Origin: an uncultured Enterobacteriaceae bacterium
Lineage (GTDB): Bacteria > Pseudomonadota > Gammaproteobacteria > Pseudomonadales > Pseudohongiellaceae
Direction: 5' to 3'
Assembly: GCA_964606735.1 (NCBI GenBank)
Contig: CAZSHI010000007.1
Span: 13,630 to 77,629 of the forward strand
DNA: 64,000 bases
Part shown: piece after piece, positions 42,965 to 46,334 of the stretch
Numbering within the stretch: the stretch's first letter is position 1
Layout of the letters: each line of letters opens with the position of its first letter
The notes under the pieces: generated by a model
What the model was told of the DNA's origin: nothing
What the model saw: the letters and a program-made list of their open reading frames with translations, nothing else
Databases searched by the model: none
Made by a program: the position numbers and the translations under genes

Positions 42965-43354
42965 GTGAAAAAAAATTCACATGTAGCGGCTTTTATTCTA
43001 ATCATGCTGGGCAGCTACTCTTCTGTGCTCAGAGCCCATCATTCAACGGCCATGTTTGATTCCGATAATCCCATTGAGTTGGCAGGAACAATCGTCGAGT
43101 GGCAATACACAAACCCCCATACCTTCATTATCCTGAAGGTTGATGAGGATGGAGATGAAGTGGAATGGGCGCTGGAAGGGCGAAGTACCAGCGCCATTTA
43201 TCGCCTGGGTTGGACCCCGGAAAGCCTTCAGCCAGGCGATGAAATAATGGTTACCGTGCGACCTTTACACAGTGGAGCACCGGGTGGAAATTACAGCAAT
43301 ATTCGCTGGAAGGACGGTACCGAAATTGACCCCTATGCTCCAAGAACACAATAA
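42965..43354 (+). CDS. Small Sec-secreted protein with predicted mature N-terminus HHS (probably the family catalogued as DUF6152), copy 1.
   Basis: Signal peptide KKNSHVAAFILIMLGSYSSVLRA|HHS. NPHTF motif. About 105-aa mature domain, probably beta-rich. GTG start behind GGAGA. Confidence 0.75.
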   Translation: MKKNSHVAAFILIMLGSYSSVLRAHHSTAMFDSDNPIELAGTIVEWQYTNPHTFIILKVDEDGDEVEWALEGRSTSAIYRLGWTPESLQPGDEIMVTVRPLHSGAPGGNYSNIRWKDGTEIDPYAPRTQ

Positions 43355-43364
43355 CCCTCTGGTA

Positions 43365-44240
43365 ATGAAGATGAAAGGTATAAAAATCTGGCGCAAGGTG
43401 TTTTCCCTGACAGTTGTGCTTCTTGGCCTGTGCCTGGTGACGGCATGCGCGCCGCAGAATGATCAAGTTAATGCAGCAGGGAATACAGCCTCTGCGAACA
43501 CCATGAGCTATCCGGACTGGCGCGGGCAATGGCAACGCGCCCCTGGCAGCCTGAACTGGCCTTCCGAGGGCTATGAGCAGGTCGGTCCTCCACCTCTTAC
43601 GGAAGAGTACATGGCGATCTGGCAGGGCTATACCGCTCTGCAGGAAGCGGGCATCCCTGCTGGTGATCCCCCATCAACCTGCCTGCCTCAGGGGATGCCG
43701 CGAATTATGAAAATGACTTACCCCATGGAAATCATTGTTACCCCTGAAATCACTTATATCTATGCCGAGTGGAACAGCCAGTTTCGGCGGATATACACTG
43801 ATGGTAGGGATTGGCCATCATATATACTGCCGGCATTTAATGGCTACTCGATTGGGCAATGGCATGATGAGAATAACGATGGAGTCTACGATATGCTGGC
43901 CATTGAAACTCGTGCCATGAAAGGGCCACGCTCCTATGATTCCCGTGCCGTTCCTTTGCATGAGAATAATGAGACAGTGGTTCTGGAAGAAATACGCCTG
44001 AGCGATGACATGACTATGGTAAATACCATCACCACCATCGATGATGCATTAACGGGCCCCTGGACTGTTGATCAGGTTTATCTGCGTGAACTGGACAATA
44101 TTGTCTGGGCTGAATATGCCTGCGCAGAAAATAATCTGCATTTAAAACTTGGGGATGAATGGTACTTTATTAACCAGGATGGCACGCTTTCCCCGACTCG
44201 GGAAGGACAGCCAGGTTTGGTACCAGAAGTACAGGATTAG
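43365..44240 (+). CDS. Uncharacterised lipoprotein (~290 aa).
   Basis: The internal ATG at 43365 gives MKMKGIKIWRKVFSLTVVLLGLCLVTAC, a lipobox signal. The track ORF start at 43272 would overlap the preceding gene by 83 nt. Confidence 0.7.
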   Translation: MKMKGIKIWRKVFSLTVVLLGLCLVTACAPQNDQVNAAGNTASANTMSYPDWRGQWQRAPGSLNWPSEGYEQVGPPPLTEEYMAIWQGYTALQEAGIPAGDPPSTCLPQGMPRIMKMTYPMEIIVTPEITYIYAEWNSQFRRIYTDGRDWPSYILPAFNGYSIGQWHDENNDGVYDMLAIETRAMKGPRSYDSRAVPLHENNETVVLEEIRLSDDMTMVNTITTIDDALTGPWTVDQVYLRELDNIVWAEYACAENNLHLKLGDEWYFINQDGTLSPTREGQPGLVPEVQD

Positions 44241-44415: not shown

Positions 44416-45081
44416 TTGATAGTATTTGTTGCTTTAGTACTGGGTTCAAAGGAATTCATGGATCCTTATTTTGGCGCCTATGCAGGGCCTGCATCATTAA
44501 TAATAACTCTTGTAATTTTAACCATATATATCCGTCAAGCGGGGCAATCCTGGAGCTCAATGGGCTTGCGTAATTTGCCTGGCCTAAATGCAAAATTTCT
44601 GGTCTTACCCCAAGCATTTGCAATATTCGTAACTGTATTAGCGATTATCGTCATTCTCACAAGAGCATTAGAAGTTGTAGGGTTTACTTTTATGTCAGAA
44701 CCCATTGAGGGTGAAACAGAGCGCTGGGGAGACATCCAAGGAAATTTTCAGTTGTATCTGGTATTAATCGCTTTGTCATGGGTGAGTGCCGGTTTTGGTG
44801 AGGAGATGTTTTTTCGAGGTTTCCTTGTTACTCGATTGAAAACTGTTTTTAGTGATATTTATTTTTCGTCAACTGTATCAGTTTTACTTGCGGCTCTAAT
44901 ATTTGGTTACGTGCACATCTATTACCAGGGGTTGACGGGCTTTGTAAATGCAGGAGTAATCGGGATAATTTTCGGGACTTATTTTCTGCTATATAGAAAC
45001 AACCTTTGGCCGCTTGTAATAGCTCACGGCTTTATCAATTCCCTAGGATTTACATCTGAGTTCATGGGTTGGGGTCTATAA
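44416..45081 (+). CDS. CPBP-family (CAAX/Abi) intramembrane glutamic endopeptidase.
   Basis: Motifs EEMFFRG, FGYVH and HGFINS in hydrophobic helices. TTG start. Visibly AT-richer than the flanking DNA. Confidence 0.8.
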   Translation: MIVFVALVLGSKEFMDPYFGAYAGPASLIITLVILTIYIRQAGQSWSSMGLRNLPGLNAKFLVLPQAFAIFVTVLAIIVILTRALEVVGFTFMSEPIEGETERWGDIQGNFQLYLVLIALSWVSAGFGEEMFFRGFLVTRLKTVFSDIYFSSTVSVLLAALIFGYVHIYYQGLTGFVNAGVIGIIFGTYFLLYRNNLWPLVIAHGFINSLGFTSEFMGWGL

Positions 45082-45375: not shown

Positions 45376-45780
45376 ATGCAACCCAGCAAACGAAATTCAT
45401 TCACAGCCATCATGTTGTCAATGGGCATTAGTGTATTTGCCTCTGGAGCAGCCATTGCGCATCATTCATTCCCAGCTACCTATATTATGGATGACACGGA
45501 AACGATTGAGGGTGTCATGGTTCAGTTCCTGTTTCGTAACCCGCACTCATTTGTACATGTGATGGTGACGGATGAAGAGATAGGCGAAAATCATCGGTAC
45601 GCGGTTGAGTGGGGAGGTGCCAGTGCGCTGGCCGGCTCGGTTGACCGCTCCAGCCTGAAGCCTGGTGACAGGGTTCGCATCAGTGGTCAACCTGGACGAA
45701 ACCCCGATGATCATCGCCTACGTATGCAGAGTCTCGAAGTTGTGGATGGTGACTTTGTATGGAATGGCGACTTCGAGTAA
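45376..45780 (+). CDS. Small Sec-secreted protein with predicted mature N-terminus HHS (DUF6152-like), copy 2.
   Basis: AAGGAG (45363-45368) then ATG. Signal MQPSKRNSFTAIMLSMGISVFASGAAIA|HHS. NPHSF, VEW and LKPGD are shared with copy 1. Confidence 0.75.
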   Translation: MQPSKRNSFTAIMLSMGISVFASGAAIAHHSFPATYIMDDTETIEGVMVQFLFRNPHSFVHVMVTDEEIGENHRYAVEWGGASALAGSVDRSSLKPGDRVRISGQPGRNPDDHRLRMQSLEVVDGDFVWNGDFE

Positions 45781-45998: not shown

Positions 45999-46334
45999 GG
46001 TGAGTTGGCCAGACAATCGCTGTTTCTAACAGAGGAAAGTCCGGGCTCCACAGAGCGAGGTGCCAGGTAACCCCTGGGGGGCGTGAGCCTACGGAAAGTG
46101 CAGCAGAAAAGATACCGCCGGTTTACCGGTAAGGGTGAAATGGTGCGGTAAGAGCGCACCGCATGGGTGGCAACATTCCATGGCATGGTAAACCCCACCT
46201 GGAGCAAGGCCAAATAGGAACCTTTAGTGTTGCTCGCACTGGGTTCGGGTAGGCTGCAAGAGGGTCATGGCGACATGGCTCCCAGATGAATGATTGTCCA
46301 CGACAGAACCCGGCTTACAGGCCAACTCACTTTT
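45999..46334 (+). ncRNA. rnpB: RNase P RNA, bacterial type A.
   Basis: Near-identity to E. coli M1 conserved cores: GAGGAAAGTCCGGGCTCCA (46032-46050), GGTAAGGGTGAAA, GCGGTAAGAGCGCACCG, AGCAAGGCCAAATAGG and ACAGAACCCGGCTTA. The P1 helix pairs 46000-46010 with 46320-46330. TATAAT lies at 45987-45992. Confidence 0.95.

Follow-up and report, generated by a model that had tools for sequence, protein, structure and literature searches.

Secreted proteins that carry a metal site at an N-terminal histidine are already known, and proteins of this kind have repeatedly proved to be unexpected metalloproteins, as seen with the lytic polysaccharide monooxygenases (LPMOs), CopC, YcnI and the four signal-strapping families of 2025. 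The histidine brace is defined by His as residue 1 together with a distant conserved His, as in LPMOs (AA9/AA10 and others); the bacterial periplasmic copper binders CopC/PcoC (with CopD/PcoD) and YcnI hold Cu(II) with His1 and a further His or Asp and work with a membrane protein from a neighboring gene; and bacterial derivatives of the brace are mostly linked to metal transport (PMC10952591). The four signal-strapping families are apparently non-enzymatic and associated with TonB receptors or permeases. DUF4198, DUF6702 and the Ang-1/Ang-2 "anglerases" bind Ni, Co or Cu via His1 and further His residues; of those described, DUF4198 and DUF6702 are beta-sandwiches and others are domains fused to HupE/UreJ permeases (PMC12537917). 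Here, we describe two genes for small exported proteins, A and B, in a 64,000-nucleotide (nt) stretch of DNA (the window) from an uncultured Enterobacteriaceae bacterium that GTDB places in the Pseudohongiellaceae. Both belong to DUF6152 (Pfam PF19649), which is probably a further case of the N-terminal-histidine metalloprotein theme, in the form of a two-protein periplasmic module.

A sequence-only reading of the window had proposed that A and B are secreted paralogues with His-His-Ser (HHS) at the mature N-terminus as a candidate metal site, and had suggested DUF6152 as their family, catalogued only as a domain of unknown function. The suggested family was correct. Against a curated gathering cut-off of 27 bits, A scored 89 and B 58.9 with the Pfam model, and neither matched any NCBIfam model. 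No paper that mentions DUF6152/PF19649, or the DUF6644/PF20349 family discussed below, was found in the literature searched, and DUF6152 is absent from the text and supplements of the signal-strapping paper (PMC12537917). ORF A begins with GTG at 42965, preceded by GGAGA 8 nt upstream, and ends with a stop codon at 43352-43354; ORF B begins with ATG at 45376, with AGGAGA 6 nt upstream, and has a predicted mature start at His29. The two proteins, which represent two clades of the family, are 29% identical and share the motifs HHS, NPH(T/S)F, (V/A)EW and SL(Q/K)PGD, the same short list that had been read from the window. When 1.84 billion representative proteins were scanned in full (E <= 1e-3), 6,643 DUF6152 clusters at 50% identity were obtained. 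They come from Gamma- and Alphaproteobacteria, Acidobacteriota and Gemmatimonadota, and among them are lineages of estuaries and the sea that transcribe the genes. Searches of solved structures with single sequences or profiles found no relative of A, B or the partner protein introduced below. The automatic names given to family members in public databases disagree. One member is called "Copper-binding protein" in UniRef. In JGI, several are called "DNA/RNA endonuclease YhcR with UshA esterase domain", labels that probably stem from a COG match to an OB domain, and one is called "cell shape-determining protein MreC". For none of these names was an experimental basis found.

Leader statistics were calculated for 378 pooled DUF6152 sequences from both clades. 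A His-His pair (HH) is placed 25-26 residues ahead of xPH in 370 of them, and in 364 of those 370 it is preceded by a leader with a median length of 25 amino acids (aa). Residue -1 to H1 in these leaders is Ala in 346 (95%), Gly in 10 and Ser in 5, and residue -3 is A, V, L, S, T, G or I in 361. Every leader contains a strongly hydrophobic 9-mer, with the core ending 4-12 residues (median 7) ahead of H1, 99% carry Lys or Arg in the n-region, and a lipobox was found in none of the 364. Of the 32 long leaders, all but one contain an M, V or L, at 18-35 residues ahead of H1, that could serve as an internal start. In seven of the eight sequences that break the spacing rule, the N-terminal region is missing from the record (truncated or replaced by unrelated upstream sequence), and the eighth retains HH with NPY in place of NPH. 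The domain was internal in none of the members examined. This positional pattern exceeds chance by far. The Sec signal peptides with an A-x-A-type site directly before His, which had been read from A and B alone, are therefore the consensus of the 364 leaders, and cleavage at this consensus would make His residue 1, as in the histidine-brace class. Protein A has Leu at -3 and a weaker alternative S-x-S site five residues upstream and, therefore, its cleavage site rests on the family consensus. From these sequence patterns, processed A and B almost certainly begin with two invariant histidines.

Column counts were taken from an alignment of 151 diverse DUF6152 representatives. H1 and H2 are each His in 147/149, the preceding residue is Ala in 137/149 and the following residue is Ser in 136 sequences. 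In the NPH motif, Pro is found in 151/151 and His in 150/151. The three histidines that the sequence-only reading had singled out are thus conserved, and this is true of both clades. Other near-invariant positions, in the precursor numbering of A, are Asp32, Glu71, Trp68, Gly82-Trp83 and Gly91-Asp92. The ligand-capable residues common to both clades are, in mature A numbering, H1, H2, H28 (the NPH His) and E47 (Glu71 of the precursor), with H2 and H28 as the candidates for the second His of a brace-type coordination; no Met is conserved in both clades. D68 is also conserved across the clades, but a structural role is more likely for this residue since it lies within the PGD turn. Clade A additionally conserves D8 (96%). 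Clade B has its own additions, H33, D84 and H85 (99%), which are absent in clade A, and its Asp84-His85-Arg86 is nearly invariant. H33 comes four residues after the NPH His and, therefore, should lie on the same face of beta2; these extra residues hint at a larger or a second binding site. E47 as a candidate ligand, like the downstream partner gene and the upstream DUF6644 pair described below, goes beyond what had been read from the window before.

A structure of the mature A chain was predicted with AlphaFold2 from a 140-sequence alignment, giving a predicted local distance difference test score (pLDDT) of 94 and a predicted template-modelling score (pTM) of 0.84. The model has the topology beta1-beta2-beta3-helix-beta4-beta5 in a five-stranded barrel. 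Foldseek against the PDB returned only oligonucleotide/oligosaccharide-binding (OB) folds, namely SSB, PriB and the LysRS anticodon-binding domain (template-modelling score, TM, 0.5-0.6; E ~3e-4). Weak Pfam matches to OB domains agree with this result, as do the automatic YhcR labels of JGI. The predicted fold of DUF6152 is, then, an OB-fold and not the beta-sandwich of LPMOs, CopC and DUF4198. Read from the DSSP string, N26-P27 would make up the beta1-beta2 turn, H28 the start of beta2 and E47 a part of beta3, and the N-terminal segment would turn helically over residues 4-6 and form a beta-bridge with residue 7. Since the model has a two-residue beta2-beta3 hairpin (register i+j = 77) and hydrophobic alternation along these strands, the side chains of H28, aromatic residue 30 and E47 should face outward on beta2-beta3, a surface that is the canonical ligand-binding face of OB-folds. 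In the model, the N-terminal segment would have to fold back onto this face.

The gene that starts just after the stop codon of A encodes a lipoprotein, which we call the partner. In 80 DUF6152 loci from species-representative genomes, located via DUF6152, the partner gene was directly downstream on the same strand in 66. The reciprocal test used 80 metagenome loci found via the partner, of which the 63 with at least 450 nt of upstream sequence were counted, and DUF6152 was directly upstream in 62 of these 63. The two are also found as natural fusions in two representative proteins, P0152 (370 aa) and P0259 (290 aa), where the partner profile gave E-values of 2.8e-38 and 1.2e-22. The order in both is signal peptide, HHS-DUF6152, linker and a partner domain without a signal peptide of its own. 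HHS is kept right after the signal peptide in both fusions, and this is what a need for a free N-terminus would predict. Transcript contigs from three independent salt-marsh metatranscriptomes bridge the stop of A and the start of the partner without a mismatch (43241-43484, 43245-43395 and 43249-43407), at low depth and possibly by carry-over of DNA. The partner gene thus follows the clade-A genes of DUF6152, and linkage, fusions and co-transcription mark its product as an obligate partner.

For the strict placement of HH at the N-terminus after processing, the best explanation is a need for the free alpha-amine of His1, as in an N-terminal metal chelate. We favor this explanation because HHS is kept in the fusions with DUF6152 always as the first domain, because a distant His and a Glu on the predicted OB face are conserved in both clades and because the same logic uncovered Ni-, Co- and Cu-binding families (PMC12537917). 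A role without metal is unlikely. HHS, NPH and the Glu would then serve to dock the partner, to bind a small ligand of organic or anionic nature or as a catalytic center of the Ser-His-Glu type, and the N-terminal position would be incidental. This would suit Ser3, which is about as conserved as the histidines (354/364, ~97%) and is not needed by a histidine brace, as well as the lack of metal-related genomic context and the oligonucleotides, oligosaccharides or proteins that OB-folds classically bind on the beta2-beta3 face. However, it is hard to explain otherwise why the motif directly follows the signal peptide in every full-length member examined and stays N-terminal in the fusions. Also, ~3% of members have Ala, Gly, Thr or Asn instead of Ser3, which would be intolerable for a nucleophile, and an exposed N-terminal His intrinsically chelates transition metals (PMC12537917).

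The comparison with CopC and LPMOs that had been drawn from the sequence holds as a functional likeness only; it fails for the fold, given the OB-fold model at pLDDT 94, and for profile homology to CopC. Like CopC, DUF6152 is a small exported protein whose signal peptide is cut directly ahead of His, and the sequences of E. coli YobA, PcoC and CopC of Pseudomonas and Ralstonia all read A-x-A followed by H. Unlike CopC, it has an OB-fold model rather than a beta-sandwich, an invariant His2 and Ser3, a soluble or lipid-anchored calycin-like partner and no copper genes found nearby. In hhalign, DUF6152 reached 1.2% with YobA and 0.4% with a four-sequence CopC profile, and Pfam gave no CopC match. 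A CopD-family membrane partner was not recognized next to DUF6152, where it is the DUF6644 pair that adjoins. With LPMOs, DUF6152 shares secretion, His as residue 1 and a distant conserved His, but the model lacks the immunoglobulin- or fibronectin-III-like beta-sandwich of LPMOs, the protein is far smaller (~105 aa) and is not known to be catalytic, there is no association with polysaccharide or carbohydrate-active genes and its conserved carboxylate is more typical of transport-type variants. The signal-strapping families are similar in their unknown function and in the conserved His right after the signal peptide. DUF6152 differs from them in having an obligate separate partner and in the conservation of His1, which is ~98-99% compared to 65-79% in DUF6702 and DUF4198.

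CusF/SilF is, like DUF6152, a small periplasmic OB-fold protein, and the possibility had to be considered that DUF6152 is an ordinary copper-resistance chaperone of the CopC/PcoC or CusF/SilF kind that Pfam classes separately. In the hhalign alignment with CusF (6.6%), the OB strands align topologically and the HHH that E. coli CusF has near its mature N-terminus falls on HHS, and CopC shares the junction of A-x-A and His; one member also carries the automatic copper-binding name. The Cu(I)/Ag(I) site of CusF is made of His/Met/Met and a Trp on beta2-beta3 and does not align with NPH, which falls on "SKK" of CusF. Neither homology to the CusF family nor its His-Met-Met site was found in DUF6152. 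CusF works with the CusCBA efflux pump, whereas the DUF6152 loci have no CusCBA-type system; more generally, cop, pco and cus genes are not found nearby, the fold is not cupredoxin-like, the hhalign values are low for both families and no experiment was found behind the UniRef name. This explanation is largely refuted, and we consider it extremely improbable.

The partner itself had no Pfam or NCBIfam match even at E = 10, although it has more than 4096 relatives at 90% clustering. Over 51 sequences, the mean column identity is 59%, with two Cys, one His and many Trp, Tyr, Arg, Asp and Glu invariant, and a DxNxDGxxD loop resembles a calcium-binding motif. Its predicted structure has a pLDDT of 74, and the two segments that hold the invariant Cys are its low-confidence parts. 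With this moderate-confidence model, the best Foldseek matches were CRABP2/FABP (E 1.5e-4, TM on target 0.56-0.60), and nitrophorins and avidins were weaker, the nitrophorins at E 0.02 or worse and TM ~0.2-0.25. The partner thus appears to be like the calycins (FABP/CRABP, lipocalins, avidins), with an antiparallel up-and-down beta-barrel of ~10 strands. It is unlike them in an extra N-terminal region of ~90 residues, the two invariant Cys and the DxNxDGxxD loop, and it has no sequence similarity to any Pfam family. Remote homologues of ~260-300 aa were recognized by profile-profile comparison in a clade-B locus (L168/L169), with hhalign probabilities of 99.2% (E 6e-20) and 97.2% (E 4e-11); Pfam scans of such divergent members of the superfamily gave no matches.

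These properties of the partner bear on a second alternative, a two-subunit periplasmic metalloenzyme, which is the main rival of the trafficking reading, although we regard it as less likely than not by a wide measure. DUF6152 would provide a redox center of the histidine-brace type and the partner barrel would take up a substrate that is small and probably hydrophobic. Periplasmic cytochromes would be the source of electrons, and each paralogous pair would have a substrate of its own. The extreme conservation of the partner, in which two Cys, one His and many polar residues are invariant, and the resemblance of its barrel to ligand-binding calycins would fit such an enzyme, as would the paralogue expansions of both genes: 25/80 loci have 2-4 DUF6152 genes, and Novosphingobium megaplasmids have up to five partner copies. 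Among the neighbors in the 80 genome loci, metallo-beta-lactamase (MBL)-fold proteins were found in 8, dihaem-type cytochromes c in 6 and TonB-dependent receptors in 3, with another type of these receptors in 7. The recurring MBL-fold and cytochrome c genes raise the possibility of periplasmic redox chemistry. The module on megaplasmid AP027331.1 of Sphingobium sp. TomTYG65 (L173, 293976-308716) has two genes each for the partner, DUF6152 and DUF6644 besides one for a TonB-dependent receptor, and it is surrounded by genes for luciferase-like monooxygenases, an FAD oxidoreductase, a peroxiredoxin, TauD and sulfonate-binding proteins. However, no more than 6-8 of the 80 loci have the redox neighbors, and the sulfonate context was met once and in 0/80 loci elsewhere. 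The confidence of the partner model is moderate, no substrate can be named and all bacterial non-LPMO His1 proteins characterized so far lack convincing catalysis (PMC10952591, PMC12537917). A more specific version is quite unlikely in our view, namely a two-component histidine-brace oxidoreductase of the periplasm with a redox-active Cu or other metal on His1 and hydrophobic substrates in the partner barrel, its paralogous pairs tuned to different substrates and the whole widespread in abundant marine and soil bacteria. A link of the module to sulfur scavenging was considered for the Sphingobium cluster and rejected, as it recurred in 0/80 loci.

Handling of haem or another tetrapyrrole is very unlikely. 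The partner would hold the cofactor in the manner of nitrophorins, and the DUF6152 histidines would act as axial ligands or as acceptor. The weaker fold matches of the partner include nitrophorins, one of its His residues is invariant, some loci have a cytochrome c gene and a TonB-dependent receptor adjoins the module in both cultured hosts examined, the second being Croceibacterium atlanticum 26DY36, with a plasmid that carries DUF6152, DUF6152, partner, TonB-dependent receptor and MarR in this order. Nevertheless, FABP/CRABP are the best fold matches and those to nitrophorins are weak, no genes for haem uptake or degradation were seen at the loci and a requirement for a free N-terminus would be atypical for haem ligation.

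Upstream of A, the window has two genes for small DUF6644 membrane proteins, one of each of two types. The start of the type-1 gene overlaps the stop of rsmI by 8 nt. In an alignment of DUF6644 proteins, the columns for His, Leu-Arg, Gly, Phe, Lys and Trp were invariant, and the two types are paired in 18/19 DUF6644 loci. Some Alphaproteobacteria have a type 2 that carries a DUF2231-like membrane domain fused at its N-terminus (e.g. L049:3136-4527). Three clade-B genes were looked up in long contigs, and in two of these contexts (L165 and L168/L169) DUF6152 is directly followed by both DUF6644 orthologues; the third (L166) stands alone. The six genes of the window form a block of 4.1 kb, in the order DUF6644a, DUF6644b, DUF6152-A, partner, CPBP protease gene and DUF6152-B. 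Both types of module are therefore present in the window, since the clade-A pair, the clade-B gene and the DUF6644 pair all lie within this block.

In our preferred reading, DUF6152 would be exported by Sec as a periplasmic OB-fold protein of ~105 residues, and cutting by signal peptidase before His-His-Ser would expose the alpha-amine and the imidazole of His1. His1 and/or His2 would then form one mononuclear metal site with H28 and E47 on the ligand-binding face of the OB-fold, to which clade A would add Asp8. Clade-A DUF6152 would form a 1:1 periplasmic complex with the downstream calycin-like lipoprotein, and clade-B DUF6152 would work with the pair of small DUF6644 proteins in the inner membrane. 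Its most likely role would be to capture a divalent transition metal and to pass it on within the module. The TonB-dependent receptor next to the module in both cultured hosts, and the remote partner homologues in a clade-B locus, also speak for this reading. A metal-binding, trafficking function of DUF6152 within a complex with its partner is, in our estimate, about evenly poised between right and wrong, and metal binding by DUF6152 taken alone is somewhat more probable than that. The metal could plausibly be Cu(II), Ni(II) or Zn(II). Coordination chemistry would favor Cu(II), while the Glu/Asp ligands and the precedent of DUF4198 would allow Ni or Zn. The genomic context favors none of these metals.

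Copper, in particular, found no support in this context. In 1.68 Mb around the module (~170 loci), there were no genes for PcoA/B/C, CopC or CusF, a true CopD was found in only 1 of ~170 loci and isolated CusA/B/C-type matches in 2 of ~170. No Fur, Zur, CueR, CopR/CusR, NikR or MntR box stood out when consensus sequences were compared with four intergenic regions; the best match, 10/12 upstream of B, is at chance level for ~14,000 tests. Notable palindromes were not found either, and promoter and terminator scans were at background. The idea of DUF6644 as a split CopD, raised by sub-threshold Pfam matches to CopD, DUF2214 and UPF0093, was rejected as unsupported: CopD matched 3/23 members (best E 6.3e-5), and hhalign gave 0.5% with YebZ and 0.3% with a four-sequence profile, where the reversed control scored higher.

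Several of these observations weigh against the metal-trafficking reading. The missing copper-homeostasis genes and metal-regulator boxes do so, and the relationship of DUF6644 to CopD that had been hoped for is unsupported. The very high conservation of the partner is more like that of an enzyme or a specific ligand binder, and a simple metallochaperone would not usually show such paralogue expansion. A histidine brace does not account for Ser3 being ~97% conserved. Also, the N-terminus is less certain in the model, where the first ten residues have a mean pLDDT of 80 compared to 95-98 in the core. A similar problem is reported for apo PaDUF6702, with the His1 side chain modelled at low confidence (PMC12537917).

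Table 1. Positions of the genes, motifs and RNA discussed, in the window unless a locus name precedes the position
Feature	Position	Strand	Remarks
DUF6644-like protein, type 1, 163 aa	41656..42147	+	~4 transmembrane helices by inspection; weak Pfam DUF6644 match
DUF6644 protein, type 2, 169 aa	42149..42658	+	Pfam DUF6644 E 3e-07
DUF6152 paralogue A (clade A), 129 aa	42965..43354	+	Pfam PF19649 E 2.3e-25
Signal peptide of A	42965-43036	+	predicted mature protein A from His25 (43037)
His1-His2-Ser3 codons of mature A (precursor H25-H26-S27)	43037..43045	+	sequence and family conservation; candidate metal-ligand motif
Asn-Pro-His codons in A (N50-P51-H52; mature N26-P27-H28)	43112..43120	+	beta1-beta2 turn and first beta2 residue in the model
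Glu71 codon in A (mature E47, beta3)	43175..43177	+	Glu in 146/151; fraction 0.98 in clade A, 1.00 in clade B; candidate carboxylate ligand
Partner gene, 291-aa lipoprotein	43365..44240	+	lipobox LVTAC; starts 10 nt after stop of A
CPBP/Rce1-like intramembrane protease gene	44416-45081		probable ATG 44458; between partner and paralogue B
DUF6152 paralogue B (clade B), 134 aa	45376..45780	+	Pfam PF19649 E 5.6e-16
HHS codons in B	45460-45468
NPH codons in B	45538-45546
RNase P RNA gene (rnpB)	46001-46333		bacterial class A (329 bits), flanked by paralogue B and mraZ
Remote partner homologue	L168:7763-8665		profile-profile comparison only
MBL-fold protein	L168:8691-9749		N-terminal hydrophobic leader; homologues in 8/80 loci
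Remote partner homologue	L168:9821-10600		profile-profile comparison only
Cytochrome c, two c-type domains	L168:10763-11584		homologues in 6/80 loci

The block in the window is flanked by rsmI and rnpB-mraZ, and the division and cell-wall genes mraZ, rsmH, ftsL and ftsI adjoin it beyond rnpB. The CPBP gene (Table 1) was considered as a part of the system and rejected, since it was found in 0/80 genome loci and in no transcript contig of four metatranscriptomes. An insertion specific to the lineage and unrelated to the system is probable. Paralogue B is transcribed in four metatranscriptomes. At rnpB, metatranscriptome contigs show many "joints", where conserved rnpB segments of different species have most likely been joined into chimeras.

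DUF6152 itself, its OB-fold scaffold, the invariant HHS, the calycin-like partner and the link to DUF6644 appear to be new. The family would extend the list of His1 proteins with a scaffold unlike those of the His1 proteins compared here, and with an N-terminal motif that is unusually strict, as HHS is kept in about 98% of members. It depends on a partner whose superfamily is large but is covered by neither a Pfam nor an NCBIfam model. The cultured carriers Sphingobium, Novosphingobium and Croceibacterium make the DUF6152 module directly testable. If metal binding holds true, this would be a new periplasmic module for metal handling or metal-dependent function and would open a first way to the function of three uncharacterized families together.

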